This document shows positions 1,406-58,863 of a stretch of 64,000 bases of DNA, piece after piece. Each line of letters starts with the position of its first letter. Positions within the stretch are counted from its first letter, which is position 1. Both the position numbers and the translations under genes were made by a program. This DNA is from an uncultured delta proteobacterium (lineage in GTDB: Bacteria > Desulfobacterota > RBG-13-43-22). The notes beneath the pieces were generated by a model that saw only the letters and a program-made list of their open reading frames with translations, was not told where the DNA came from and did no database searches. Location: the NCBI GenBank assembly GCA_963802945.1, contig CAWDKY010000014.1, forward strand, positions 155,855 through 219,854, written 5' to 3'.

Positions 1406-2305
1406 TTGGGAAAAATTGCCTCCATTGATATCGGTTCCAATACGTTACGATTATTAATCGCCGAAAAAACAAGGGATGGGATTCGTGCTTTTTCCCGGGA
1501 TCGGGAGATTGTCAGGTTAGGGAGAAGTTTTTATCCTAACCTGCTCCTGGCTTCCCAGGCGATGGAAGCCGCAATAACGGTCTTGAGTCGATTTAAGATC
1601 AGGACCAAGCAGGAAGGGGTGAGGAAAATCATTGCTGCCGGTACCGGGGTCCTTCGAGAGGCTAAAAATAGTTCTGATTTTCTGGAAAGGGTTAAAAGGG
1701 AAACCGGGGTATCGGTTAAGATTCTTAAAGGGACTGAGGAAGCCCGGATTATGGCTAAGGGGGTGCTTTCCGTTTTTCCTTCAACCTTTGGGAGAACTGT
1801 TATTTTTGATGTGGGCGGCGGGAGCACCGAATTTGTTGTTGTGACCGATGCGCAGATAGGCCGAAGGACCAGTTTGCCCCTTGGGGTTGTGGAATTAACC
1901 GAAAGGTTTTTAATGTCCGATCCACCGAAAAAGAAAGAAGCGGATTCTCTGAAGGTTCATTGCCAAAATATTTTAAGGAAAAATTTGCCAAAGGATGATA
2001 AAATAAATTGCTTAATTGGAACGGCAGGGACTATTACCACTTTAGCTGCAATGGTCAAAAAGCTTTCCAACTATGACCCGGAGAAGATCAATGAGACGGT
2101 ACTGACCAAAGAAAATCTTATTGAATTATCAAAAAAGATCTTAGCCCTTTCTTGTCATCAAAGGGCCGAATTGACAGGTCTGGAAACTGAAAGGGCCGAT
2201 ATCATCGGAGCCGGGATTCTGCTGGTTCTGGAGGTTATGGATTATTTTTCCAAAGAGTCCCTGCTGGTCAGTGATGCCGGGCTGTTGGAAGGATTGATTT
2301 TATAG
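1406..2305 (+). CDS. ppx: Ppx/GppA family phosphatase (short form, no HD domain)
   Basis: IDIGSNTLR, DVGGGSTE, GTAGT, RADII and GLLEG motifs. Confidence 0.9.
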   Translation: MGKIASIDIGSNTLRLLIAEKTRDGIRAFSRDREIVRLGRSFYPNLLLASQAMEAAITVLSRFKIRTKQEGVRKIIAAGTGVLREAKNSSDFLERVKRETGVSVKILKGTEEARIMAKGVLSVFPSTFGRTVIFDVGGGSTEFVVVTDAQIGRRTSLPLGVVELTERFLMSDPPKKKEADSLKVHCQNILRKNLPKDDKINCLIGTAGTITTLAAMVKKLSNYDPEKINETVLTKENLIELSKKILALSCHQRAELTGLETERADIIGAGILLVLEVMDYFSKESLLVSDAGLLEGLIL

Positions 2306-2306
2306 A

Positions 2307-3927
<1,621 letters not shown>

Positions 3928-3932
3928 ATAGA

Positions 3933-4402
3933 GGTTCACGGTTCATGGTTTAAGGTTCAAGGTATAAATCTTAGGTGCATGAGAGACAGAATAAGTGGGG
4001 AATTTTATCGAACTAAAAGTCTGGCAACGATCTAAGGATTTATCCGTATTTATTTATCAGTTGACCAACCAAGGCTTTTTTCTAAAGATTTTGGTTTGAG
4101 AGATCAGATTCGCCGTGCCGCGGTATCCGTTCCGAGCAATATCGCCGAAGGGGATGAATTAAGAACAAACAAACAATCTGTTCAATACTTTTTTATGGCC
4201 AAAGGTTCTTTAGCTGAACTTTTAACCCAAGCATTTATTTCTTTTGAGATAGGGTATATAAGCCAAGAAAAGTTCTACTATATAAAGAATGAATGCCAGG
4301 CCATTTCAAGCATGTTGACAAAGTTGATTCATGCTAGATCTAAGGCATTATCCATTGATTCTTAATCTTTAACCGTAGACCTTAAACCTTGAACCGTAAG
4401 CC
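3933..4402. repeat. Five-unit heptamer inverted arms (3933-3967 and 4368-4402) enclosing the four-helix-bundle gene
   Basis: Left ggttcac ggttcat ggtttaa ggttcaa ggtataa; reverse complement of right arm ggcttac ggttcaa ggtttaa ggtctac ggttaaa. Confidence 0.9.
3995..4365 (+). CDS. Four helix bundle protein (23S rRNA IVP/bAvd-like family), one frameshift in a T run near 4080
   Basis: GTG 3995 gives MGNFIELKVWQRSKDLSVFIYQLTNQGFF; one added T continues SKDFGLRDQIRRAAVSVPSNIAEG, the family signature. Confidence 0.88.
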
Positions 4403-4418
4403 AATTTTTTAGAAACCC

Positions 4419-5978
4419 ATGGACATTCACAGTCAAAAAGTCCTGATCCTTGATTTTGGTTCTCAAACGACCCAGCTTATTGCCCGTCGGGTCCGGGAGG
4501 CCAGGGTGTATTGCGAAATCCATCCCTTTAACTGGCCTCTGGGAAAAATTAAGGCCTTTGATCCCAAAGGGATCATCCTTTCCGGAAGTCCGGCCAGTGT
4601 GTATGATCCCAAGGCCCCTTTTCCGGATCCCGGCATTCTGGAATTGGGCGTTCCAGTATTGGGGATTTGCTATGGTATGCAATGGATCACCCAGCAACTA
4701 AAAGGCCGGGTGGGCCGATCGGCCCACCGGGAATACGGCCGGGTGGAACTTACCTTTCTGGATTTTCAGGATCTCTTTTTCGGGCTCGACAAAGGAATAA
4801 AAACCCAAAGCCGGATCGTCTGGATGAGCCATGGGGACCGAATTGAACGTCTCCCCAAAGGTTTTTCGGTTATTGCCCGAAGTCAAAATGCCCCGATAGC
4901 GGCCATGTGCAATCAGAAAAGGTCCATCTTCGGGGTTCAATTTCACCCCGAGGTGGTTCATACCCCGGCCGGGCATCGCATACTGAAAAATTTTCTTTTT
5001 AGGGTCTGCCGCTTGAAACCACTTTGGACTTCCAGTTCTTTTATTAAGCACACCATCTCTCAAGTCCGGCAACAGGTGGGGGAGGACAAAGTCATCTGCG
5101 CCCTTTCCGGCGGGGTGGATTCCTCAGTGGTGGCCGTTCTGCTGCGTCAGGCCATTGGAAAACAGTTGACCTGTGTTTTTGTCAACAACGGCGTGCTTAG
5201 GAGTGGAGAGGCCGAAAAAGTAGTCCGGATCTTTCGGGGCCATTACCACATTCCCCTGGTTTATGTTGATGCCTCCCGGTCTTTTCTTTTAAAACTTAAA
5301 GGTATTATCGACCCGGAAAAAAAGCGGACCATTATCGGCCATGAATTTATCCGCATCTTTGAAGCCGAAGCCAAAAAGATCGGTTCGGTTCGTTTCCTGG
5401 CCCAGGGGACCCTCTATCCGGACGTGATCGAATCGGTCTCCTTTAAAGGCCCTTCAGCCACTATCAAGACCCATCATAATGTGGGCGGACTTCCGGCGCG
5501 CATGAAATTGAAGCTGATCGAACCCCTAAGGGAATTATTTAAAGATGAAGTCCGAGAAGTGGGCCGCAATCTGGGTATGCCTGAAGAAATAGTCAGCCGG
5601 CAGCCATTCCCAGGTCCCGGGTTGGCGATACGTATTCTGGGAGAGGTGACCGAGGCCCGTTTGAAAATCCTTCGCCAGGCTGATACCATTGTTTGGGAGG
5701 AGATGCGAAAGGCCGATCTTTATACCAAGGTCTGGCAGTCTTTCGCTGTTTTGCTGCCCGTTAAGACCGTAGGCGTCATGGGGGACGAACGGACTTACGA
5801 AAATGTCATTGCCCTGCGTATCGTTGACAGCCTGGATGCCATGACCGCCGATTGGAGCCGCATCCCTTACGGTTTATTAGGTCAGGTGTCCAATCGGATC
5901 ATCAATGAAGTCAAAGGAGTCAATCGTGTTGTCTTTGATGTCTCTTCCAAACCTCCCAGCACGATCGAATGGGAGTAA
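4419..5978 (+). CDS. guaA: GMP synthase (glutamine-hydrolysing)
   Basis: ILDFGSQ, GICYGMQ, QFHPE, LSGGVDS, C-terminal KPPSTIEWE. Confidence 0.97.
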
Positions 5979-5980
5979 TC

Positions 5981-6150
5981 AGTTCGGAGTTTTGAGTTCG
6001 GAGTAAAAACCAGCAATTCAAAAAAAGTAATATGAATGATTGGCAGTTGACTCCGAACTCTGAACTCCAAACTCAATTCGTCAAAGGACGAACGTTTTTC
6101 ATTGAACTTTGAATCTTGTACCTAGAACCGTAAACCGTAAACCTTACACC
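5981..6150. repeat. AGTTCGG-type heptamer hairpin followed by a lone TTGAACC-type arm
   Basis: agttcgg agttttg agttcgg ... actccga actctga actccaa; then attgaac tttgaat cttgtac ctagaac cgtaaac cgtaaac. Confidence 0.8.
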
Positions 6151-6161
6151 GGGATTTAATT

Positions 6162-9713: not shown

Positions 9714-9900
9714 TTGAAGGATTCAAGGGGTCAGTACTATGTTCGGAGTTATTAGTTCGGAGTAAAACCAACCCCTTTTAACTCTAAAGGATAATGCTGG
9801 ACAATAAATAGTTTACACCAAACGCCAAACGCTTTATTCTTAAAGTTTGGCGAAAACCGAACCTTGTACCTTGGTCCTTAAACCGTATACCGTCCACCTT
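9714..9900. repeat. Mixed 8-bp and 7-bp tandem repeat arms
   Basis: attgaagg attcaagg; gttcgga gttatta gttcgga; ccttgta ccttggt ccttaaa ccgtata ccgtcca. Confidence 0.7.
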
Positions 9901-9905
9901 ATTTT

Positions 9906-10635
9906 ATGCCCAACTATCAAGAGCGGTTCTATCGCAGCAAAATCAGTTCTCCGGATTGGATTTCTTTTACTATCCAGGTGAAAGAAAGCGACCTGTGGGT
10001 GCGGGCCAGGAAAGATCTTTCGGCCGAGGGGTATGAACGGGTTTTTCAATACCGTCATGCCCTGGAAACCTATATCCACCAAAACCCCGATTTTAAGGAT
10101 TCGCTTGCGCCCTTAGCTCTGGATCCTCTGGCCCCCTCCATTGTACAAGCCATGCTTCAATCCGGGCAAAGTGGCCGGGGTCGGCCCCATGGCCGCAGTA
10201 GCCGGAGCCATCGCCGAGTTTGTCGGCAAGGATCTACTGGCCTTTTCCCCGGACGTTATTATAGAAAATGGAGGGGATTTATTTATCGTCTGCAACGAAT
10301 CCTTGACGGTTGGGATCTATGCCGGGGAGTCTCCTTTAAGCGGACGGGTGGGAATTCAGTTGACCCCTTCCGACAGGCCGGTGGGATTATGCACTTCTTC
10401 CGGGACCGTTGGTCATTCCCTAAGCTTCGGCCGGGCCGATGCAGTGACTATTTTATCTCCATCGGCCGTGCTTTCCGATGCCGTAGCCACGGCGGTTGGG
10501 AACCGGGTTCGTACAAAAAATGATATTCAACCGGCCTTGGATTGGGCACAAACGATCCCGGAGATTGAAGGGGCCTTGATTATTTGTGGAGATCAGATGG
10601 GGGTTTGGGGAGATTTGGAATTGGTGACCCTATAG
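9906..10635 (+). CDS. UPF0280 / ApbE-superfamily protein, frameshift near 10168
   Basis: N-half YQERFYR...VKESDL joins GVGPMAAVAGAIAE, IENGGD, CTSSGTVGHSLSFGRADA in another frame. Confidence 0.85.
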
Positions 10636-11621: not shown

Positions 11622-11764
11622 TCACTTAAAAGGGTTCGAGGATTCCAGGATTCAAGAGGTCGAGAGTGGCAAATCTGAAGGTCTTTCATTTTAATCCATG
11701 CACCTTTGAATTCTAAAATTAATTTTTCTGCTTCGTGGTGCCCCAAAGTGGCATGAAGGTTTTT

Positions 11765-12679
11765 ATGAAAAAAGGTGTTCATCTCTGGATAGGTTTGGGT
11801 TGCCTGTTGCTTTTTCAGGCGGCCCTTTTCTTAAGAATCGAGTCGGTGACCACCTATTTTTATTCTCTGATCTGGTGGTCGTATATCGTTATGATCGATG
11901 GCATTATTTACCGGCTCCGAGGAAACTCGCTGATCGTCAACCGGACCCAGAAGTTTTTTCTTTTAATCCCTTGGTCGGTGGCGATCTGGCTTGTATTTGA
12001 AGGATTTAATCTGGTTTTGAAAAATTGGTATTATGTAGGGGTGCCGAAAGAAATTTTTTTACGCTGGCCCGGATATTTTGTGGCTTACGGCACGGTCCTG
12101 CCTGCCATCCTGGAAACCCGAGATCTTTTATTCACTTTGGGGATTTTTGCAAAAAGTCGTTTAACCCCCATTCCGGTTCAGGATTCCTGGTACAGACCTT
12201 TGATTATTACTGGGACCTTGTGCCTAATACTTCCCTTGTTTTTCCCGCGATATGGCTTTCCCTTGGTTTGGCTGGGTTTTATTTTTCTTCTGGAGCCTTT
12301 CAATCATCGCACCGGAAGACCTTCTTTGTTGACAGATCTTAAGGGGGGGGAAACCGGAAATTTGTCTCAACTCTTGCTTTCAGGGATGATTTGCGGTCTC
12401 CTTTGGGAATTCTGGAATTTTTGGGCCGAGGCCAAATGGGTTTACACCGTTCCCTGGGTTGAGGATATTAAGTTGTTTGAAATGCCGGCCCTGGGTTTTT
12501 TCGGTTTTCCTCCTTTTGCTGTAGAATGTTTTGTCCTGGTTCATTTTTTGAGGTTGTTTGAATCCCGACCGGCAGGGAAAAAGAAAATTTTCTGGCAGGC
12601 CGTTCCCTTATGGCTTCTTTTCTATGGGGTCATGTTTGCGGCTATAGATTCTTACACTGTTCATTCGTATGGTCAGTAA
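11765..12679 (+). CDS. Conserved multi-pass membrane protein of unknown function
   Basis: About nine hydrophobic segments, Trp-rich GLLWEFWNFWA and FEMPALGFFGFPPFAVE motifs; start 11753 or 11765. Confidence 0.7.
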   Translation: MKKGVHLWIGLGCLLLFQAALFLRIESVTTYFYSLIWWSYIVMIDGIIYRLRGNSLIVNRTQKFFLLIPWSVAIWLVFEGFNLVLKNWYYVGVPKEIFLRWPGYFVAYGTVLPAILETRDLLFTLGIFAKSRLTPIPVQDSWYRPLIITGTLCLILPLFFPRYGFPLVWLGFIFLLEPFNHRTGRPSLLTDLKGGETGNLSQLLLSGMICGLLWEFWNFWAEAKWVYTVPWVEDIKLFEMPALGFFGFPPFAVECFVLVHFLRLFESRPAGKKKIFWQAVPLWLLFYGVMFAAIDSYTVHSYGQ

Positions 12680-12707
12680 ACTGTCTTCTGGGGGGAACAC
12701 AGGAAAG

Positions 12708-14153
12708 ATGAAAAAGGGGTCAAGGATTCAAGGAGTCAAGGATTCAAGTGAAAGGCCTGGAAGAAACAAAAAGCAAACCCTTGAACCCTTGAATCCTCGA
12801 ATCCTCGAATCCTCATTTTTTAAGAAACTCTATTTCATCAGCTTGGGGTGTGTCAAGAATCAGGTGGACAGTGAGATGATGCTTCATCAACTGACAAACA
12901 ATGGTTTTTCTATCGCCCAGGAACCTGATGAGGCCGAAGTGGTGATCATCAATACCTGCAGTTTTATCGAGTCCGCTACCCAGGAAAGTATAGAAACCAT
13001 TTTGGAGGCAGCCCGTTTAAAGAAAGAGGGGGCTTGCCAAGTCTTGGTAGTCACCGGTTGTTTCCCTCAACGTTATAAAAAACAATTGATAAGTCAATTG
13101 CCGGAAGTGGACCTATTCCTGGGGACGGAATCTTTTTTAGGTTTGACCTGGCATCTACAAGAGTTGTTGGCCGGCAAAACAAAATCGAAAATGATTCTCA
13201 AACCCGATCCCGGACTCTGGGAAGAATCGCATCATCGTTTACTGACCACCTCCCCGGGAACGGCTTATTTAAAAATCGCCGAAGGCTGTTCCAATCACTG
13301 CGCCTACTGTACGATCCCTTCTATTCGAGGAAAATTCCGCAGTCGTGACCCAAAGGTGTTGATACAGGAAGCTCAAATCCTGGCCGTGCAGGGAACCAAA
13401 GAACTCATTTTGGTGGCCCAGGATACTACGGCCTATGGATATGATCTTCGTCAACCGGCTTCTTTGATTGGCCTGATTAAAAATATTTTAAAGATCAATT
13501 CTTTTCAGTGGCTGCGCCTGCTGTATTTGAGGCCGGAAAGGATTACGCAAGAACTCTTGGATTTGATAGCCCAGGAAGAAAGAATTTGTCCATATTTCGA
13601 CATCCCGATCCAGCATGTCAGCGACCGTATTCTAAAGTCCATGGGCCGGCCTTATGGGCAAAAGGCATTAAGGGATTTGATTAAAAAAATCTATAGCACA
13701 GTACCTGAGGCAGCCCTACGGACGACTTTAATGGTGGGCTTTCCGGGTGAAAGGGATGAAGATTTTCAAGAACTGCTTCAATTTGTTGCCGAGACAGCTT
13801 TTGATCATCTGGGGGTTTTCAGATATTCCCCTGAAGAAGGGACCCCGGCGGCCAGCTATCCCGATCAGGTCCCGGAAGAGATCGGTCAATGTCGGATGGA
13901 GTTGTTGATGTCCAGGCAGAAAGAAATCTCCTTAAAGAAAAATCAAAGTCGGATCAGTTCAGTGGAGCCGGTCCTGATATCCGGAATTAGTCCGGAAAGC
14001 GATTTATTGATCGAAGGTCGGACCCGTTTCCAGGCTCCGGAGGTGGACGGGGTAGTCTTTATTGCCGACGGGGAACCCAAAATAGGTGAGATGGTCAAAG
14101 TTAAAATCACCGAAGCCCATGCTTATGATCTGGTTGGGGTAGTGTTTGAATAA
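12708..14153 (+). CDS. rimO: Ribosomal protein S12 methylthiotransferase
   Basis: SLGCVKNQVDSE, INTCSFI, KIAEGCSNHCAYC radical SAM motif, APEVDG TRAM domain; ATG 12708 with aggaaag RBS. Confidence 0.93.
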   Translation: MKKGSRIQGVKDSSERPGRNKKQTLEPLNPRILESSFFKKLYFISLGCVKNQVDSEMMLHQLTNNGFSIAQEPDEAEVVIINTCSFIESATQESIETILEAARLKKEGACQVLVVTGCFPQRYKKQLISQLPEVDLFLGTESFLGLTWHLQELLAGKTKSKMILKPDPGLWEESHHRLLTTSPGTAYLKIAEGCSNHCAYCTIPSIRGKFRSRDPKVLIQEAQILAVQGTKELILVAQDTTAYGYDLRQPASLIGLIKNILKINSFQWLRLLYLRPERITQELLDLIAQEERICPYFDIPIQHVSDRILKSMGRPYGQKALRDLIKKIYSTVPEAALRTTLMVGFPGERDEDFQELLQFVAETAFDHLGVFRYSPEEGTPAASYPDQVPEEIGQCRMELLMSRQKEISLKKNQSRISSVEPVLISGISPESDLLIEGRTRFQAPEVDGVVFIADGEPKIGEMVKVKITEAHAYDLVGVVFE

Positions 14154-23957: not shown

Positions 23958-24986
23958 ATGGTGATCGTGATGAAAAAACATGCCACGGGAGAAGAAATTG
24001 AAAATGTTATTAAATGGATTGAATCCGTAGGATACCAGACCCATCCCTCTCGAGGTGTGGAACAAACCATTATCGGGGTGGTTGGAGACGACCGGGGTAA
24101 GGCCCAATTAAAATCCGTAGAGTATCTTCCCGGAGTGGAAAAGGTCGTTCCTATCTTGAAACCCTATAAACTCGCCAGCCGGGAGGGCAGACCGGGGGAT
24201 ACGATCGTTCAGGTCGGTAATGTTGAAATCGGCGGCCCGGAATTTATTGTCATGGCCGGCCCCTGCTCCATTGAAAGCGACGAACAACTGATGGAAAGCG
24301 CTTACATCATAAAAAAGGGTGGCGCCCACATCTTAAGAGGCGGGGCTTACAAGCCCAGGACCTCTCCCTATAGCTTCCAGGGGCTGGAAGAAGAGGGGCT
24401 TAAGATGTTGAAAAAGGTCCGCGATAAAATGAATATCCCGGTGATCACCGAGGTCATGAACACCACGGAGGTTGAGTTGGTTGAAGAAAACAGCGACATC
24501 CTGCAGATCGGGACCCGGAACGTCCAAAATTTTCCTCTCTTGAAAAAAGTCGGCCAATCCAGAAAGCCGGTCCTTTTAAAAAGAGGCATGATGACCACGA
24601 TTGAAGAGCTTCTGATGTCTGCTGAATATATTCTTGCCGCCGGGAACGATCAGGTCATCCTTTGCGAGCGAGGCATCCGAACCTTTGAAACCGCCACCCG
24701 TAACACCCTGGATTTGAGCGCCGTCCCGGTCTTAAAGGAACTGACCCACCTACCGGTTATCGTCGATCCCAGCCACGCCACCGGCCATTGGAAATACGTC
24801 CTTCCCTTATCCCGGGCCGCCTTGGCCGTGGGAGCCGATGGATTGCTCATCGAAGTCCATCCCCAGCCGGAAAAGGCCCTCTGTGACGGTCCGCAGTCCC
24901 TGAAACCGGAAAAATTTTATCAACTGATGGATGAATTAAGGATGTTGCAGGGGGTTTTAAGAAAAGGAACAGGTGCTTTGCAATGA
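23958..24986 (+). CDS. aroF: DAHP synthase, class I-beta with N-terminal regulatory domain
   Basis: [47 protein letters not shown]. Confidence 0.93.
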
Positions 24987-26079
24987 ATCAGATCAGGGTT
25001 AATTTAGACGCCCAAACCCCAACCCATTATAAAATCTATATTGGTCGGGATATTATAGATCGAATAGGGGTTATTTTAAATAAAGGGGACTGGATCAACC
25101 GTTATGTCATTATCACCGATTCCCAGGTGAAAACCATTCACGGGAAAAGGGTGTTGGATACCTTAAGAAAGATGGATCTCAATGTAGATATGATCGATTT
25201 TTCTGCCGGGGAGAGTTCAAAAAACATACAAACTTCCCTTCAGTTGGTGGACAGCCTGATCGCCCTGGGGGCGGACAGACATTCCGGCCCTGATCGCCTT
25301 GGGAGGAGGAGTGGTTGGGGATATAACCGGGTTCATTGCCTCTATCTTATATGAGGGGCCTTCCTTTTTTTCAGATGCCAACCACCCTTCTGGCCCAGGT
25401 GGACAGCAGTATCGGAGGCAAGACCGGGATTGACCTTCCGGTCGGAAAAAATCTCCTGGGGACTTTCTATCAGCCCCAGGCGGTTTTTATCGACCTGACC
25501 TTTCTCCAAACCCTGACGGACCTGGAATTCAATAACGGCCTTCCGGAAATCCTGAAATATGGGATTATTGAAGATCCAGAACTCTTACGGACCTTGGAGG
25601 ATAATACAGAAGCCATCAGGGCCCGGGATTTTTCTCTGATGGAAAGGATAATTTCCAAATCCTGCCGGATCAAAAAAAGGATCGTGGAAATGGATGAGAA
25701 AGAAGGCGGACTCCGCCGCATTCTTAACTTCGGCCATACTATCGGTCATGCCGTGGAAGCGGAATCGGGTTATTCCCTCTCTCACGGGCAAGCCGTGGCC
25801 ATCGGCATGGTCTGTGCCGCCTTCTTGTCTGAGAAATTAAACTATTTATCTTCCAAAGAACGGGAGCGGATCGAGTCCCTGGTCAAGGCCTTCGGTCTGC
25901 CTTACCGTATCCCCAAAGAACTGAAAACAAAAGCCCTGCTTGACAGGATGATGAGAGACAAGAAAAAAGAGGGGGCCATTCTCCCTTTTGTGCTGCTGAA
26001 AAAAATCGGACTCCCTTTTATCAATGGAGGGGTTTCCGAGAAAAAAATTCAGGAAACGATTGAGGCCCTGAAAGCATGA
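24983..26079 (+). CDS. aroB: 3-dehydroquinate synthase, frameshifts near 25285 and 25347
   Basis: GESSK, (ALGGGVVGD in intermediate frame), PTTLLAQVDSSIGGKTG, LNFGHTIGHA, HGQAV. Confidence 0.9.
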
Positions 26080-27841: not shown

Positions 27842-27956
27842 GCTTAATAAAATATTTGAAATAAAATTGTTACGGGTTGCAGGTTAGATAATCGTGTCTT
27901 TTGGCCGTCAACTAGAACCAATGCCATTAACTTAAGGGAAACTTTATATCCAAATC

Positions 27957-28170
27957 GTCACCCCGGCGAAAGCCGGGGTCCAGAAAAGCTAATAAAAGCT
28001 GGATTCCGGCTTCCGAGACTGTGTCGCAATTATATTTTTGTCATTCCGTGCAAGCGAAGCGCGACACGGAATCCAGTATTTTCATTAAGTTCTGGATGCC
28101 GGCTTTCGCCGGCATGACGGCTTTGACGGCTCTGTCCGCTATTACGACACAGTCTCTCCGCCGGAATGAC
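27957..28170. repeat. REP-like palindrome doublet interrupted by a MITE
   Basis: gtcaccccggcgaaagccggggtccag ... ctggattccggct[tcc MITE tcc]gccggaatgac. Confidence 0.85.
28015..28156. mobile_element. 142-bp MITE, copy 1
   Basis: TIRs gagactgtgtcgcaat / attacgacacagtctc; 3-bp duplication tcc; near-identical copy at 30418. Confidence 0.88.
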
Positions 28171-28263
28171 TCCAAGAGTTCCAAACCAGAGCAATAAAGT
28201 TTAAGTTAACAGTATTGACCCGTAACTCGTAACCCCAAACCCGTAACCAGAAATTTATAAGTC

Positions 28264-40732: not shown

Positions 40733-42202
40733 CTAACCGGAAGAGGGTTTTTTCATACGTTGATTTTTTTCAACGAATTCTAAAGAATTTATAATATTAA
40801 CTAATTTCGAATAAGGGCGGACTAATTCCATGTAGACTCGAGAAAATAATCTGGCTCCGGATACTAATGACGTGCCATTCGAATTTTCATATTTTACAAA
40901 TCGTTTGTCTCTATATTCAAAAAGAGGCTTTGATGCCCCTGCCTCCTCAATTTGGTGAGCCTCTTTACCGGTAATAAAGCCCATCTTTATTCCGAGATCA
41001 GAAGCTATATTAAAAAATTTTTCATAATTAAATTGGGCAAAAATTTTAACTCTTTTCGTAATCAAGTCCATGATTACTTCTTTAGGATACCAGACGAATG
41101 GGGGCATAGCTATCGGAGTCATCATACATTGTTCAAAAAGATTTATTATTTTTGGCATTTTGAGAAGGTATTCTATATCACCGTCTTCGGCCCCGCAAAA
41201 CCTTCCGGTATTCATATGGTAAAACATACTGGCAAGTTTTAATTGTCTTCTGGGATCATTCTGATTATCTTCAGAAGTCGCAAATAGGTTAAGACATTTA
41301 TCCAATGATAGGCCGTATGATCTTTCCAGTTTTGCCCTTGATACCAAGGTATGGATTTGATCTCTATAATCATGTGAGGGAATCGAATCGTGAAAAATTA
41401 ATTTTGTGCCATTCACAGGATGAACACCTTCATTTTTTGAGATTATATTTTCAAAATTTTCCAACCGGGCTTTCTGGCGCAGAAATCTCCTTGCGTGCTG
41501 TTCCAAATGAGGATCGGTATTCGCGAGTTTTGATAGGGTGTCATCTATATTATCTTCGTTCGCGTGTTTTAGCAAATCACCCAAGAAGACGTTCTTAGTA
41601 CCAACTTTAAGTTCTGCAATGATTGAATTAACAACGTTTTTGCCAGGGTCCCATTTCAATATAATTAGATCGCCCAATTGTACAACGGTAGTAAGATCAC
41701 AAATTAAATTGAATGAACCATCCTTATTGTCTTTTTCTTCCAGTTTGAGAAGAGGTTCGATGGTTTTGATATCTATTCTTCTCGTGCCACCTTCTATTCG
41801 GTATCTCCGCAGAATCCACTTTTGTGGCCAGACCAAGGTCCATAACATGCTGTCCAATAATCTTCTAAATATTAATTGGCGATTTTCAATTACAAAACGC
41901 AGATTTCTGATGTCATTCGCTTCTTGAGGTTCTCTTTTAGAACGTAATTTTTTCTCTTTATCCTTTAAGGATCTAATTTGCTCTTCTAATTCGAGCACCT
42001 TCCATCCAATCGTAATTTGGGTTTTTTTAAAATCAGGAAAGCAGATGGCCTTAAACATTCTATGAGCATCCGTGTGCCAAATATCATATGGACTTAGCCC
42101 AACCAATTTCATTCCATCAAAACCTGTACGGTATGCGGAATCATATTGAGCTGAGATCATGTTTTCAATTGGCTCAAGGGAGGGATGTTCTAGTTCGAAC
42201 AT
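40733..42202 (-). CDS. AT-rich hypothetical protein, possible PD-(D/E)xK nuclease fold
   Basis: Intact 489-aa ORF; coiled coil then CDLTTVVQLGDLII...IIAELKVG. Confidence 0.7.
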   Translation of the reverse strand: MFELEHPSLEPIENMISAQYDSAYRTGFDGMKLVGLSPYDIWHTDAHRMFKAICFPDFKKTQITIGWKVLELEEQIRSLKDKEKKLRSKREPQEANDIRNLRFVIENRQLIFRRLLDSMLWTLVWPQKWILRRYRIEGGTRRIDIKTIEPLLKLEEKDNKDGSFNLICDLTTVVQLGDLIILKWDPGKNVVNSIIAELKVGTKNVFLGDLLKHANEDNIDDTLSKLANTDPHLEQHARRFLRQKARLENFENIISKNEGVHPVNGTKLIFHDSIPSHDYRDQIHTLVSRAKLERSYGLSLDKCLNLFATSEDNQNDPRRQLKLASMFYHMNTGRFCGAEDGDIEYLLKMPKIINLFEQCMMTPIAMPPFVWYPKEVIMDLITKRVKIFAQFNYEKFFNIASDLGIKMGFITGKEAHQIEEAGASKPLFEYRDKRFVKYENSNGTSLVSGARLFSRVYMELVRPYSKLVNIINSLEFVEKNQRMKKPSSG

Positions 42203-48289: not shown

Positions 48290-48290
48290 A

Positions 48291-48345
48291 AGGATTCAAG
48301 GTCACAGTTCAAGGTTCAAGGTTCAAAGTTAAAGGTTTAGGGTTC
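48291..48345 (+). repeat. GGTTCAA-type heptamer arm
   Basis: gattcaa ggtcaca gttcaa ggttcaa ggttcaa agttaaa ggtttag ggttc. Confidence 0.8.
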
Positions 48346-48589
48346 TGTAACACAGCTTAACTGGGAATGTTGAGATTTTGCTATACAGACATTGTCAAGA
48401 TTAATGGTGACTCCTTGTTTTTGGCTTTTGTCCTATTTTGAACGATTTCTAACGCAAATCGCTGAAGGACTCTCCTATTTAATGGTTCAATTCCAAAAGG
48501 AAATCCCCCTATTTACTATTCCCAAAATCGTGTATAATGAGGTCCATTCATAAGCCAGATCAATAAAGTAACCTATCTTCCAGTTTCGC

Positions 48590-50847: not shown

Positions 50848-51208
50848 ATAATTAAAAATCAAAAAGGTTTTACCTTGATTGAGTTGATCATCGTCATCGT
50901 CATCATCGGCATTTTGGCGGCCATCGCCATTCCAAGGTACGTCGACATGGCCAACCAAGCCCCAGAGCGCAGCCAACGGACTGACCGGTGCCCTTAAAGC
51001 CGCGGCATCAATCTCCTATGCTGATTATGTCCTTAACAGCTCCGCCACAGCTAGTCTTAATGCTACCTCGATTCTTGCAACAACCTATATGTCGGATACG
51101 GGTGGGGCTGTGGCAACGGCGACCAACGTCATCACGGCCACAATCAGCGGGACGGCCTATACCTGGGCCTATACCAACCCGAATCAAGTTTCCACCCATA
51201 CCCCCTAA
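50848..51208 (+). pseudogene. Type IV pilin (MSHA-like), ATA in place of start codon and a frameshift near 50965
   Basis: RBS gaggtg; IIKNQKG|[24 protein letters not shown] prepilin motif; continues [18 protein letters not shown]...THTP* in another frame; missing from ORF track. Confidence 0.85.
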
Positions 51209-51228
51209 GCTTTTATGAAGGAGGATCA

Positions 51229-51431: not shown

Positions 51432-51705
51432 GGTAGTCCAACCATTTCTCCCATATTTCAATCCGTAATCGTTAATTTTCTGGACTGACTTCTTAAAACA
51501 TTAGTAGGGGTAATGTGCAAAGAGGTTTTTTTGACACCGACTGTCAACTTAAATGTCGGTTAGGACAGCTTAACTCATTTTCCCTGAAGCCTATTCTATA
51601 ATTTTCCCTAAACCCATAAAGCTTGTCTTGGCTTTAACTTTGTAATCAAGAAATAACAAGTCTCTATTCTGAATTCTGACTCCTGGATTCTGGGTTTTTG
51701 TTTTT

Positions 51706-52906
51706 TTAATATGCAAATTTCCCCTTTTCATAGATCACCAGCTTCTTCCCTGTGGTGAGATGGGCGGTGACGGTCTTGTCTTCCGTATTCACCAGGTCCC
51801 AATGAAGGGCGGAATCGTTAAACCCGAGCCTCTTTTTTAATTCCTTGGTCATCCTGGCCGGATTTCCATCAAAGGTGTCGGTATAGGATGCCCCGAGGGC
51901 GATATGGCAGTTCCCGTAAGCCCCGCCGTAATTTTCATCGAAAAGGGTGTCGGCCATAAAACGATTGATCCTGGAAAAACGTTTGTCCGTCAAAGAAAAC
52001 TCCCCAACCTTAGAAGCCCCATTATCCATGGCAGATTTGTTTTACAGTGAAGGCCTCACCGGACTTGGCTTCGGCCTTTTTTACCGTCCCTTTTTCAAAG
52101 GACAGCCGAACACCGTCAACATAGTTTCCGCTCCGGAATGAAGGCAGATTGGAATAATAAACCCCTTCGGTCCCTCGAAAGTCCGGCGAAAAAAAGACCT
52201 CAAAACTGGGGATATTATGACCGGAGACGCCTTTCCATATTCTTCGCTCTCCTGGTGTGATCTTTAAATCCACATTAGCCGATTCGATGTGAAGGGATTT
52301 TATCTTAAGGCTGTTGAGCCATTTTTTTATCTGCCGGGCATTCCTATGGATATGCTCCCATTCAGCCACCGGGTCTTCTTTGTCCAGATAACAGGCCCGG
52401 ACAATCTGGTCGGTGTATTTTCTGATGGTCGTTTTGGCCTGTCTGGCCAGCTCTTCGGTGGGAACCGTACAGAGGGTCCAGCTATAAAATCCCTTCTCCT
52501 CCCGCCGATCCAGTATCTCTCTTAACGGCTTTCTTGAAATCAGGACCTTTCCGATCCGGACCGGATCGATGTCTTTCAGATGGGTCAACGATTCAGGGGC
52601 CCTTAAAAAAAATCGGCCGTTGACCTTCTGAAATAATTCTTTATCTCCCGGAGTGATAAAGACCAGTTGATCGTTCTTTGATTTTTGAAAAAATTCATGC
52701 TCCATGACGTAAGTTACACCCATACGTTGAACCGGATACATTCCCCTGTCGAGTGTTTTGGCATATAAAATCTCAGCCAGTTTCAGGGCTGGAGGCTCAT
52801 ACTGGATTAAGATAATGTCCTTTTTCCTGAAAGGTTGCTTCCTGGCTGTGGTTAATCCCCAAAAAAGCACATCGGCGTATTTATTAAGTTGATTGTCGCT
52901 TAGCAT
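51706..52906 (-). CDS. Aminopeptidase, M29 thermophilic metalloprotease family, frameshift near 52033
   Basis: NIPSFEVF, GEFSL, LFDEN, HIALG, NDSALHWD. Confidence 0.88.
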
Positions 52907-56498: not shown

Positions 56499-56985
56499 GA
56501 AGTTCCTCCTTTTTTTTATTCTGGGGCTGATCTTCCTAGTCCTCCAATCCACTTGGCTGTATGGGGAAATGATTAGTCCCTTTCGTATTGATCTGCTTTT
56601 TATTCTAATTATTTTTTTGGGCACTCTGGAAAGATTGCGCCTGGGGTTGCTCTTGGGTGTCCTTCTGGGCATGATAGTGGATGTCCTGTCCTGGGGTGGG
56701 ATGGGAAAGGCCATGATTTTATACCCGTTAGTTGTTTGGATATTCCATCTGGTTTGGACTCGAACCCTCATTCAATCCATATTTTTTATGGTTTTCTCAG
56801 TTCTGTTGCTGCAGCTCCTGTATGGTTTCTCTGTCTATTTTTTCCTAACCCTTTCCCAAGGTCTGGAATTCTCCCAATACCAGTCTTTCATGATTGTGGT
56901 TCAGGCCGTCATCACTATGCTTTTGAGTTTGCCGTTATTTTATCTTTTTAAGGCCTTTTTTGGTGAAAAGCCTTCTTTAAGTTAA
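56491..56985 (+). CDS. mreD: Rod shape-determining protein MreD
   Basis: Hydrophobic 164 aa between mreC and mrdA. Confidence 0.85.
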   Translation: MVKKFLLFFILGLIFLVLQSTWLYGEMISPFRIDLLFILIIFLGTLERLRLGLLLGVLLGMIVDVLSWGGMGKAMILYPLVVWIFHLVWTRTLIQSIFFMVFSVLLLQLLYGFSVYFFLTLSQGLEFSQYQSFMIVVQAVITMLLSLPLFYLFKAFFGEKPSLS

Positions 56986-58863
56986 TGTCCCGAATCTCAT
57001 TTTTCGAAAAAGAACCGACCGACCTTCCAAGACAATTCTCGATCACCACCATTATTATCCTGGCGATTTTTTTGGGGCTGTTAGGCCGCTTCTGGTATCT
57101 ACAAATGGTCAAGGCCACTTACTTTAAAAAATTGTCGGAAAATAATCGCATCCGGGTCTTTGATATTTCCCCGGCTCGAGGGATCATTTTAGATCGTCAT
57201 GGGACTCAACTGGTCAATTCCCGGTCTTCCTTTAATCTCTATGTTATTCCCGATGATGTTCAAAACTGGGATCTGCTTAAAGTGCAACTCTGCAAACTGC
57301 TCGACATGGACAAAGAGGAGGTGGAACAACGCCTGGCCCAAAAAAAGGCCAGCCCCATCCACCCCATTCCAATTAAATTAGATATTACCCAGGACGAACT
57401 GGGGAAAGTTGAGACCTTCAAATATCTCATGCCTGGAATCTATGTCGAAGTGAGTCCTCAACGGAGTTATCCCTTGGGTCCTGTGGCCCCCCATACTATC
57501 GGATATTTAGGAGAGATAACAGCCAAACAACTTAAAAGCAATCAGTATCCAGACAACCGGATAGGAGATTTTATCGGTCAATGGGGATTGGAAAAGGAAT
57601 GGCAGGCCGAATTAGGGGGGAAAAAAGGCGGACGATTCCTGGAAGTGGATGCCACTGGGCAAGAGATTCAGGTGTTGGGTGTCCGTGAATCAACCATGGG
57701 GAATAATCTGATAACCACTCTGGACTGGAATATTCAAAAAACAGCCCAGGAGGCCTTTAATGGGAAATCCGGGGCCGTGGTGGTCTTAAATCCGTCGAAC
57801 GGAGAGATCTTGGCCATGCACAGCTCTCCGTCCTTTGATCCTGCCTCATTCACCCGTAGGCTTTCGGCCAAAGAGTGGAATGCCCTTTTTTCAGACCCGC
57901 ATAAACCTTTTCAGAATAGGGCCATCCAGGGACAATATCCGCCGGGATCGACCTATAAAATGGTCACTGCTTTGGCCGGACTGGAAGAAAAGGTGATTAC
58001 GCCGGCGACCAGTCTTTTACTGTAACGGTTCCCTCCCTTTTGGAAACCGGGTCTTTCAGTGCTGGAGGAAAGGGGGACATGGGGCGGTCAATCTTCACAA
58101 GGCCATTGTCCAGTCCTGTGATGTCTATTTTTATAATGTGGGTATTCGCGTGGGGGTGGATCGCTTAGCCCGTTATGCGCGGCTCTTGGGAATGGGGCAG
58201 CCGACCGGCATCGCCTTATATCCGGAAAAAGGCGGTCTTATTCCTACTTCGTTGTGGAAACTCAAACGATATAAAGTCCCCTGGCAGCCTGGGGAAACCT
58301 TATCCCTGGCCATCGGGCAGGGCTATAATCTGACCACTCCTTTACAGATGGCCGTGGTTACGGCCACCATTGCCAATGGGGGCAGACTGTTTCGTCCTTT
58401 TTTGGTTAAAAAATTAGTTTCTCCTCAAGGGGAAGTGATCAAAGAATTTTTCCCCCAGTTGGTTGGGCAGGTCTCTATAAGCTCTGAAAATTTCAGAATA
58501 GTCCGCGAAGCCATGGCCGGTGTGATTAATGAACCGGGAGGAACAGGCGGGGCAGCCCGCCTTTGGAGCATTGTTGCCGCCGGAAAAACAGGAACGGCCC
58601 AGGTGGTCGGCCTGGGGAAACGGGGAGGCAGAGACCACGCCTGGTTTGTGGCCTTTGCTCCATTGGAATCTCCACAACTGGCTGTGGCCGTTCTTGTGGA
58701 ACACGGCGGACATGGCGGCGCCGCTGCCGCTCCAATAGCCCGGAAGATCTTTGAGGCCTATTTCCATCTGCCTCCCAGAGGAATGGGGACTCCATCTATC
58801 CAACCCCAATCCGAAACCGAATCCCAACCCGAACCCATTGCCGAGGATAGGAACCTTGATTGA
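56985..58863 (+). CDS. mrdA: Penicillin-binding protein 2, frameshift near 58015
   Basis: RGIILDR, PPGSTYK (SxxK), SCD, KTGTAQ, DHAWF. Confidence 0.93.

Follow-up and report, generated by a model that had tools for sequence, protein, structure and literature searches.

A PF05635 gene between inverted heptamer arms at a guaB-guaA junction: a candidate gene-carrying member of a hairpin repeat family

In an uncultured delta proteobacterium, the genes for IMP dehydrogenase (guaB) and GMP synthase (guaA) are held apart by 491 nt that contain a small gene of the PF05635 family, bracketed on both sides by tandem heptamers in inverted orientation. How did such a gene come to lie between two housekeeping genes, and what connects it with the repeats around it? 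We addressed these questions in the 64,000-nt stretch of contig CAWDKY010000014.1 that surrounds the insert (hereafter the window) and among homologs of the gene elsewhere.

The insert between guaB and guaA

The window carries ppx, guaB, the insert, guaA and dnaE, in this order, on the plus strand. Upstream of the insert lies guaB (2458..3927, +; TIGR01302, 633.7 bits), whose ATG at 2458 is preceded by AAGGAG, the mechanically called reading frame starting at 2434; downstream lies guaA (4419..5978, +; PRK00074, 808.1 bits). A preliminary description of this DNA had called the two genes normally adjacent, which is half true: among 80 guaA loci listed, guaB is found upstream in 41, and in 20 of these 41 the distance is at most 300 nt. 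Its statement that guaA has no clear Shine-Dalgarno sequence was borne out, as our scan gave no match before the guaA start. The G+C content of the insert is 37%, compared with 51-52% in guaB and guaA. The insert is located outside any rRNA gene (the whole window gave zero Rfam matches), no promoter- or terminator-like site was found within it, and its DNA had zero matches in the plasmid collection. Its four-helix-bundle gene is the only one in the 64-kb window.

As assembled, this gene is broken. An N-terminal piece (3995..4081, +), with a GTG start and a weak GAGAGA ribosome site, matches positions 2-24 of NF008912 (E 6e-4), and a C-terminal piece (4081..4365, +) represents TIGR02436/PF05635 (23S_rRNA_IVP). 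The two pieces are in different frames, split at a run of six T residues (4076..4081, +) where the frame is broken relative to intact homologs, and an intact reading frame of about 118 codons is absent. The family assignment made earlier nevertheless stands, the C-terminal piece alone reaching 90 bits with TIGR02436 (cutoff 24) and 89.1 bits with PF05635 (cutoff 33.8); what does not stand is the intact open reading frame. Homologs up to 88% identical to the insert gene have intact frames. When read through the break with an X, the gene aligns without gaps to three intact homologs of 118-124 residues, sharing 97-98 identical residues with them.

According to Pfam, at least three other genes of the window are split, each into two frames: aroB (24983-26076), the PBP2 gene (56985-58860) and, on the minus strand, the gene of an M29 peptidase (51709-52906). 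These suggest indel errors in the assembly and, for the same reason, the frameshift in the insert gene is probably a sequence or assembly error rather than a sign of decay. Programmed slippage at the T run was judged unlikely, because homologs vary at this codon and because six T residues count as a short run for such slippage. Two further places in the window may be recorded here. A gene at 9906-10635, which we take to be ApbE-like, is split into two frames, and a pilin-like ORF with what is presumably a type IV prepilin-like motif at its N-terminus (50850-51210) is apparently frameshifted and lies in a region with a repeated short segment.

The five 7-bp units described on each side of the gene, in inverted orientation, were found again. 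The 5´ arm (3932..3966, +) is G-rich and of NGGTTYA type; it begins 4 nt past the guaB stop codon and consists of the heptamers AGGTTCA CGGTTCA TGGTTTA AGGTTCA AGGTATA. The 3´ arm (4369..4403, +) is C-rich, consists of five inverted heptamers and ends 15 nt before the guaA ATG. TRF gives copy numbers of 4.6 and 4.7 for the two arms. The stem itself had been overestimated at 35 bp, actual pairing comprising 25 Watson-Crick pairs over 31 positions. The inverted-repeat score of the arms is 20, while the maximum among 300 dinucleotide shuffles was 13 and none reached 20. The fold of the whole insert has z = -2.75, with no equally stable shuffle among 100, and pair probabilities exceed 0.85 for 3933-3956/4379-4402 in both 720-nt and 1100-nt contexts. 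The arms are able to pair in single-stranded nucleic acid and thereby to loop the gene out. Along the folded stem the guaB stop codon lies 5 + 16 = 21 nt from the guaA ATG, matching the earlier estimate of about 20 nt, and the 16 nt preceding the ATG are computed to be mostly open.

Could all this be low-complexity, AT-rich intergenic DNA flanking a decayed pseudogene? A frameshifted gene and a G+C content well below that of guaB and guaA are what such an origin would leave behind. However, the shuffles refute chance as a source of the arms, the gene is otherwise a close match to intact homologs of normal length, and the same build recurs, with different units, on plasmids of three phyla (see below). 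We regard this explanation as extremely improbable.

Gene-free arrays of the same repeat family

Nine other array sites, to which no strand was assigned, occur in the 64 kb; they are gene-free pairs, lone arms or degenerate arms. Three are clear gene-free hairpin pairs: one of the insert's own heptamer type between ppx and guaB, with a 53-nt loop (2303..2443), one behind the guaA stop codon with heptamers of a second type, AGTTCGG (5981..6080), and one made of octamers (12710..12825). Lone arms of the first type are a C-rich one just before the dnaE start (6102..6155) and a G-rich one of 8 units directly past a stop codon (48290..48348). A lone heptamer array of MTYCTGA type (51657..51698) equals the class 3 consensus of Geobacter metallireducens. 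The remaining sites are mixed degenerate arms between dnaE and the next gene, the last of them a C-rich arm of the first type (9715..9900), an octamer G-rich arm with a weak local partner (11629..11720), and degenerate heptamer arms before aroE with other palindromic repeats inside (27870..28253). The latter repeats, at 27955-28170, are GC-rich and non-heptameric.

The gene-free hairpins of the window had been taken for empty versions of the insert. They share its unit but not its loop sequence: none of five gene-free loops resembled the insert interior above the level of shuffles. Since the unit alone is common to both, the hairpins appear to be relatives of the insert, and the idea that they are deletion products of it is without support. 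Pairing of the arms is not element-specific either. The two cognate arms of the insert pair at -39.3 kcal/mol, compared with -44.1 and -48.7 kcal/mol for non-cognate arms of the window, and specific pairing is rejected because the non-cognate arms pair equally well or better. Both results weaken the earlier picture of a self-contained, stem-bounded element. The arms of the insert are instead interchangeable members of a genome-wide repeat family.

Two other ORFs of the window are also enclosed by repeats. Between G-first octamer arms (11629-12825) lies a hydrophobic ORF of 314 aa (11735-12679) with no Pfam match; the distant arm pair is predicted at -54.8 kcal/mol and the local hairpin at -41.1 kcal/mol. 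On the minus strand, an ORF of 489 aa (40733-42202) without a Pfam or PADLOC match has a 38-nt inverted repeat on its flanks. It falls among unnamed ESM Atlas clusters of 470-505 aa (score 0.97-0.98) and is possibly another bracketed mobile gene.

Relatives of the site were sought by a contig search with guaA as query, the matches listed being 57-69% identical. The best GuaA (69%) and the best GuaB (72%) among them both come from a Desulfobacteraceae genome. Neither the narrow nor the broad profile detected a four-helix-bundle gene in any of the 80 guaA loci listed. Among the 20 directly adjacent guaB|guaA junctions, two from Nitrospira hold a heptamer hairpin, built of another unit and closing just short of the ATG, and heptamer-like arrays are found at one from Desulfobacteraceae. 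Comparison of the junctions listed, as had been proposed, brought to light hairpins at this junction but no second copy of the gene. Heptamer arrays are present in a minority of the 80 loci. Arrays of many unit types lie near guaA in loci L004, L013, L014, L019, L032, L034, L070 and L072, with no four-helix-bundle gene in the stretch analysed around each, and the hosts of heptamer or octamer arrays near guaA belong to Desulfobacteraceae, Nitrospirota, Bacteroidota, Omnitrophota, Myxococcales and Anaerolineae. As no close relative is among the matches listed and none of the 80 loci has the gene, mobility at the guaB|guaA site of the window is inferred from distant homologs, nearly all of them cyanobacterial.

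Arms, genes and alleles among plasmid homologs

A tblastn search yielded homologs of the insert gene in 17 plasmid records, 16 of which were analysed, one near-duplicate being left out. An annotated neighbour and a site that blastn revealed later were added; with copies at the same site counted once, this makes 15 distinct sites. A gene was considered bracketed if inverted arms scoring at least 15 were present within 160 nt; script-called ORFs of the same loci served as controls. Bracketing was found at 13 of the 15 sites and in 7 of 230 control ORFs (Fisher p 6e-15), or in 2 of 101 controls matched by size (Fisher p 2e-13). Size-matched ORFs elsewhere were never bracketed (0/24 in the window, 0/290 in the guaA loci). 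Of the two misses, one is an ISL3-borne copy with the 3´ arm alone, and the other has its 5´ arm more than 160 nt away, outside the range tested. The seven positive controls comprise four annotated transposases, one ORF with shared transposase ends and two direct neighbours of cassettes. Three held-out sites from 13 further records, one of them in Gemmatimonadota, all passed, with scores of 29, 22 and 19. The hosts are cyanobacteria, Azospirillum and Gemmatirosa, a small sample that is mostly Nostocales. The enrichment of heptamer arms around four-helix-bundle genes that had been anticipated is therefore real, and the link between inverted heptamer arms and the PF05635 gene family is strong and general.

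The bracketed build recurs on plasmids in three phyla with differing units, among them GGGAAAA, GGGTGTA, GGGAGTA, GGTGACA, GTCGGAG, GACAGAG and TCAGGAG. From one element to another the unit differs, and both arms change in step; unit number ranges between about 3 and more than 15. At 14 of 14 scoring sites, the window's included, the 5´ arm contains more G than C. In a tree of 24 proteins, four well-supported clades unite proteins from non-homologous sites and different genera that have an identical unit or units differing by one base, and plasmid NC_010631 carries four unit types on a single molecule. We read this match between clade and unit as showing co-inheritance of gene and arms, not co-evolution between them.

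Several individual arrangements deserve mention. In three records (L082, L083 and L085, about 3900-4330) the 3´ arm alone has been kept, as if the four-helix-bundle gene had been captured as transposon cargo; an ISL3 transposase precedes the gene in L082 and L085, and the protein of L083 is identical to that of L082. Two cassettes are antisense to their hosts, one within nrdA|nrdB (L088:3816-4317) and one within an ABC-transporter|adaptor secretion pair (L095:3753-4300). Even so, in both host transcripts the G-rich arm precedes the C-rich one, since the arms are inverted. Eighteen PF05635-type genes have been reported in cas loci (PMC3936711). The presence of such genes inside cas, nrd, secretion and housekeeping operons would be explained by insertion and not by shared function.

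Presence and absence of the cassettes can be followed among closely similar plasmids. In 16 records of one Nostoc plasmid operon, a 506-nt cassette sits at the overlapping B|C stop/start in one record, and a different cassette at the A|B junction in five, with a length of 417 nt in three of these and a greater length in the other two. Seven records have a span that fits neither cassette, and two of these, read as sequence, have no hairpin at either junction. An integrase junction is filled in 3 of 45 records, the one empty record that was read being bare. A traM junction is filled in 2 of 35; of its alleles that were read, one is filled, two are hairpin-only and two are bare, and one hairpin-only allele shares the left junction of the filled one. 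The junctions at the L090, integrase and traM sites were read directly from sequence, pairwise alignments having split the gap. Comparison of 98.7% identical flanks at a cas6|cas4 locus revealed absence of the gene. Moreover, four-helix-bundle genes are themselves broken by gene-free hairpins, one of 182 nt and one of 188 nt, and the 182-nt hairpin has 111 matching places in 47 plasmid records.

On the plasmids, then, homologous cassettes come and go whole, the gene together with its two arms, and exactly at stop/start junctions. One operon has received different cassettes at different junctions, and gene-free hairpins are mobile in their own right. A mobile element with empty and filled alleles, as originally proposed, is a correct description of these plasmid elements; for the guaB|guaA site, the matches listed include no empty allele from a close relative. 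Target duplications of the homologous elements are ambiguous and apparently not constant, ranging from 0 to 5 nt overall: two cassette sites would allow 3-5 nt and two hairpin insertions 0-2 nt, and at other homologous insertions the adjacent sequence is replaced. The sequence GATAA stands 3´ of the right end in four insertions of three unit types (L102:772-953, L094:4184-4371, L091:4330-4345, L081:7175-7370), and AAGAAG-like sequence opens several left ends. In these few cases a target or end motif is possible.

On balance, we favour the view that the insert is a copy of a small mobile cassette and that, within the genome-wide family of heptamer/octamer hairpins located at gene junctions, such cassettes are the members with a gene. 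Such a cassette would consist of a G-rich heptamer arm, a PF05635 gene and a complementary C-rich arm. Folding would loop the gene out and make insertion nearly neutral for the operon; the cassette may be tolerated for this reason and because stop and start codons are spared.

Alternatively, hairpins might spread alone, by slippage and template switching or by means of an unrelated host or IS enzyme, and the PF05635 gene would have no part in this spread. It would travel as a passive passenger, hairpin loops offering it a safe harbour that it might reach, for instance, through recombination between arms of the same unit. The interchangeability of arms in the window, the ratio of one gene to nine other arrays, and the hairpin-only alleles at the traM junction with their one shared left junction would all follow from this. 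Paired arms can also hold other cargo, such as the ORF at 11735-12679 or, in G. metallireducens, IS110 and IS481 transposases (PMC2700814), and no catalytic partner was found among 36 longer homologs of the protein. Yet the A|B and B|C alleles that were read are either fully filled or bare, and the unit tracks the protein clade across genera and sites. The passenger would, besides, nearly always have to be PF05635, since size-matched control genes are almost never bracketed at the plasmid, window or guaA loci. We therefore hold a mere passenger role to be rather unlikely.

Reports of paired heptamer arrays come from several genomes, each on its own and with no origin given, and PF05635 has no assigned function. 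Their near-obligate pairing, along with filled, hairpin-only and bare alleles in culturable cyanobacteria, offers a direct test of both.

Possible roles of stem and protein, and comparison with known systems

Does the stem act in RNA or in DNA? Selection on the stem of the transcript would be expected to leave more G-U pairs than A-C mismatches on the host-sense strand. The two were compared in 29 stems, five stems of unknown strand being left out. No G-U excess was detected (51 vs 61, p 0.40; sign test 6 vs 13, p 0.17), and there is no sign of selection on RNA structure; a strand-symmetric inverted repeat would account for the stems just as well. A stem of some 25 bp is a suitable substrate for RNase III, which the host of the window presumably possesses. 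By analogy with 23S rRNA intervening sequences (IVSs) of the same build, the transcript stem of the insert may be cut by RNase III without religation, and we lean slightly towards this outcome. If the stems are RNase III sites, the elements would alter how the mRNAs of core operons are processed. In the Coxiella 23S rRNA IVS, a 28-bp terminal stem with tandem GACAGAT repeats encloses a PF05635 gene, RNase III cuts at the first repeat, and the protein is probably not made in vivo (PMC4990558).

Within the window, arms placed after stop codons are G-rich and those placed before start codons are C-rich, and three of five host starts behind a C-rich arm have no Shine-Dalgarno match. This arrangement could mean that the hairpins are mRNA processing or translation signals co-opted by the host and that the protein is an RNA-binding regulator, perhaps autoregulating through its own flanking sites as a five-subunit ring on five heptamers. 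There are parallels: TAACTGA repeats end near start codons without Shine-Dalgarno sequences, and a protein binding them has been sought (PMC4679880); the Avd fold binds RNA (bioRxiv 2023.10.23.563531); and the positions of Xanthomonas repeats are conserved between two species and not unstable (PMC4692102). Still, a host regulatory system seems improbable to us. Near-identical loci differ patchily in what their junctions contain, some cassettes are antisense to the host operon, hairpins interrupt the four-helix-bundle gene itself, and unit number is far from constant. Neither does the mRNA strand display the G-U bias (51 vs 61), and starts without a Shine-Dalgarno match also occur where there are no arms.

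What may the protein do? The model of a close intact homolog, P0015, is all-helical (pLDDT 95). Its best fold matches are 2GSC (Xcc0516; Z 19.8, rmsd 1.2, 112 aligned; Foldseek E 1e-7), 2RLD (BT_0352; Z 16.1) and bAvd (Z 14.6-14.8, rmsd 1.7-1.9 A, 9-10% identity), followed by a plant invertase-inhibitor bundle (Z 13.4). With the TIGR02436 and PF05635 cutoffs passed as well, both the family identity and the structural kinship to bAvd claimed at the outset are corroborated; a link of the PF05635 family to Avd is also made in the literature (PMC10053308, bioRxiv 2023.10.23.563531). The Avd profile NF033474 gives 16.9, below its cutoff of 80. The 2GSC structure is a homopentamer of five chains (PMC4990558), and by analogy the insert protein is likely a pentamer of the Avd fold. 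Full-length homologs (113 of 120 listed) have a median pI of 9.0 and a net charge of +3, and such mildly basic proteins would be compatible with nucleic-acid binding.

Searches for a catalytic function gave no candidate. None of 69 ORFs scanned in the window has a reverse transcriptase Pfam match, the insert's neighbours being guaB and guaA, and profile and fold searches with the insert gene found neither an HUH/tyrosine transposase nor any other transposase. No homolog of the protein was found in the phage collection, P0015 had no PADLOC match, and the ESM Atlas search returned the same family and nothing else. The family is very large, 7769 of 8000 scored candidates matching PF05635. Each of the 36 longer homologs is a one-off read-through fusion, the fused neighbour varying widely and no catalytic partner recurring; a GIY-YIG domain is present in one of them, and none has a reverse transcriptase, transposase or integrase Pfam domain, an absence that is weak evidence. 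In five fusions (P0121, P0122, P0130, P0131, P0133) 7-, 8- or 3-residue periodic or low-complexity peptides stand beside the four-helix domain, as expected for translated repeat arms. Periodic peptides beside the domain were seen in 7 of 38 flanks and 5 of 86 control windows (p 0.045), a weak enrichment and no more than a hint.

We tentatively propose that the protein, itself devoid of a transposase, integrase or reverse-transcriptase domain, attaches to the hairpin and brings in a host enzyme for copying it; its relation to the gene-free hairpins would then be that of RAYT to REPINs. Copying is the weakest step of this scheme: a reverse-transcriptase route is unlikely when taken singly, and a route through single-stranded-DNA recombination or repair is unlikely to the same degree. 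A broader reading is put forward with more reserve. According to it, PF05635 genes could be the autonomous partners of the unexplained heptamer hairpins that lie at gene junctions in many bacterial phyla. The pentamer would recognise the hairpin and, in the manner of Avd, enlist a host reverse transcriptase or single-stranded-DNA enzyme, by which hairpins with and without a gene would be copied into stop/start junctions; rRNA IVSs would have arisen where such a copy entered rRNA. If the protein does drive copying, this would be a new class of mobile elements without a catalytic domain of known kind, and one explanation would cover what PF05635 does, where IVSs with an ORF come from and why bacteria have an excess of heptameric repeats. 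Taken as a whole, the analysis points to an overlooked kind of small mobile DNA without a known transposase.

How does the insert compare with systems already described? The closest in build are the 23S rRNA IVSs of Coxiella and Leptospira (S23p), with which it shares the PF05635 family, a similar stem length, heptamers in the stem and terminal complementary arms around the S23p ORF. Unlike them, it is located within an operon of protein-coding genes, where a stop codon and a start codon meet, and has gene-free sister hairpins in its neighbourhood; cleavage by RNase III has been shown for the rRNA case only.

In Xanthomonas (GGGAATC), G. metallireducens (classes 1-4) and Beggiatoaceae (TAACTGA), inverted tandem arrays occupy operon junctions, with a few bases between them and the stop and start codons, as they do in the window. 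Tandem 7-8-nt units, an inverted pair and adjoining stop and start codons characterise the insert too. Cyanobacterial STRR repeats are a further known repeat type. Inverted GGGAATC pairs occur at junctions such as groES|groEL in Xanthomonas (PMC4692102), and one GGGAATC array, with no partner arm listed, is located 6 nt past the bccP stop codon, with XCC0516 following it directly (PMC4692102, S2 table A, row 15). The paired arrays of G. metallireducens have been called regulator sites, and IS110 and IS481 transposases are found at paired octamer sites (PMC2700814). In the portions of these papers covered here, the arrays are treated as G-quadruplexes or regulator sites and are not tied to PF05635. 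Nor are flanking repeats mentioned in the text covered of PMC8700078 and bioRxiv 2024.02.27.582315. A general link between heptamer arms and PF05635 was not found stated in the open-access literature; subscription journals and curators' notes, which were outside its scope, may hold it.

The bAvd protein of diversity-generating retroelements (DGRs), a pentamer that binds RNA and activates a reverse transcriptase (bioRxiv 2023.10.23.563531), has the same fold as the insert protein, from which it is set apart by 9-10% identity, an NF033474 score below cutoff and the absence of a reverse transcriptase near the insert. With MITEs and insertion sequences, the insert family has in common inverted ends, multicopy gene-free forms and presence/absence alleles. 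However, it has no transposase, its target duplications do not appear to be constant, and its ends are internally repetitive and differ between elements. REPIN/RAYT systems resemble it in having many gene-free inverted doublets with a spacer, of which the window has three clear hairpin-forming pairs, and a small gene flanked by its own repeats (PMC3337134). Here, though, the arms are head-to-tail heptamer arrays, not palindromic REPs, and the protein is an all-helical PF05635 member, not an HUH tyrosine transposase. The insert thus fails membership of the IVS, REPIN/RAYT and DGR classes, and yet it is IVS-like, within an mRNA, and REPIN/RAYT-like in its organisation.
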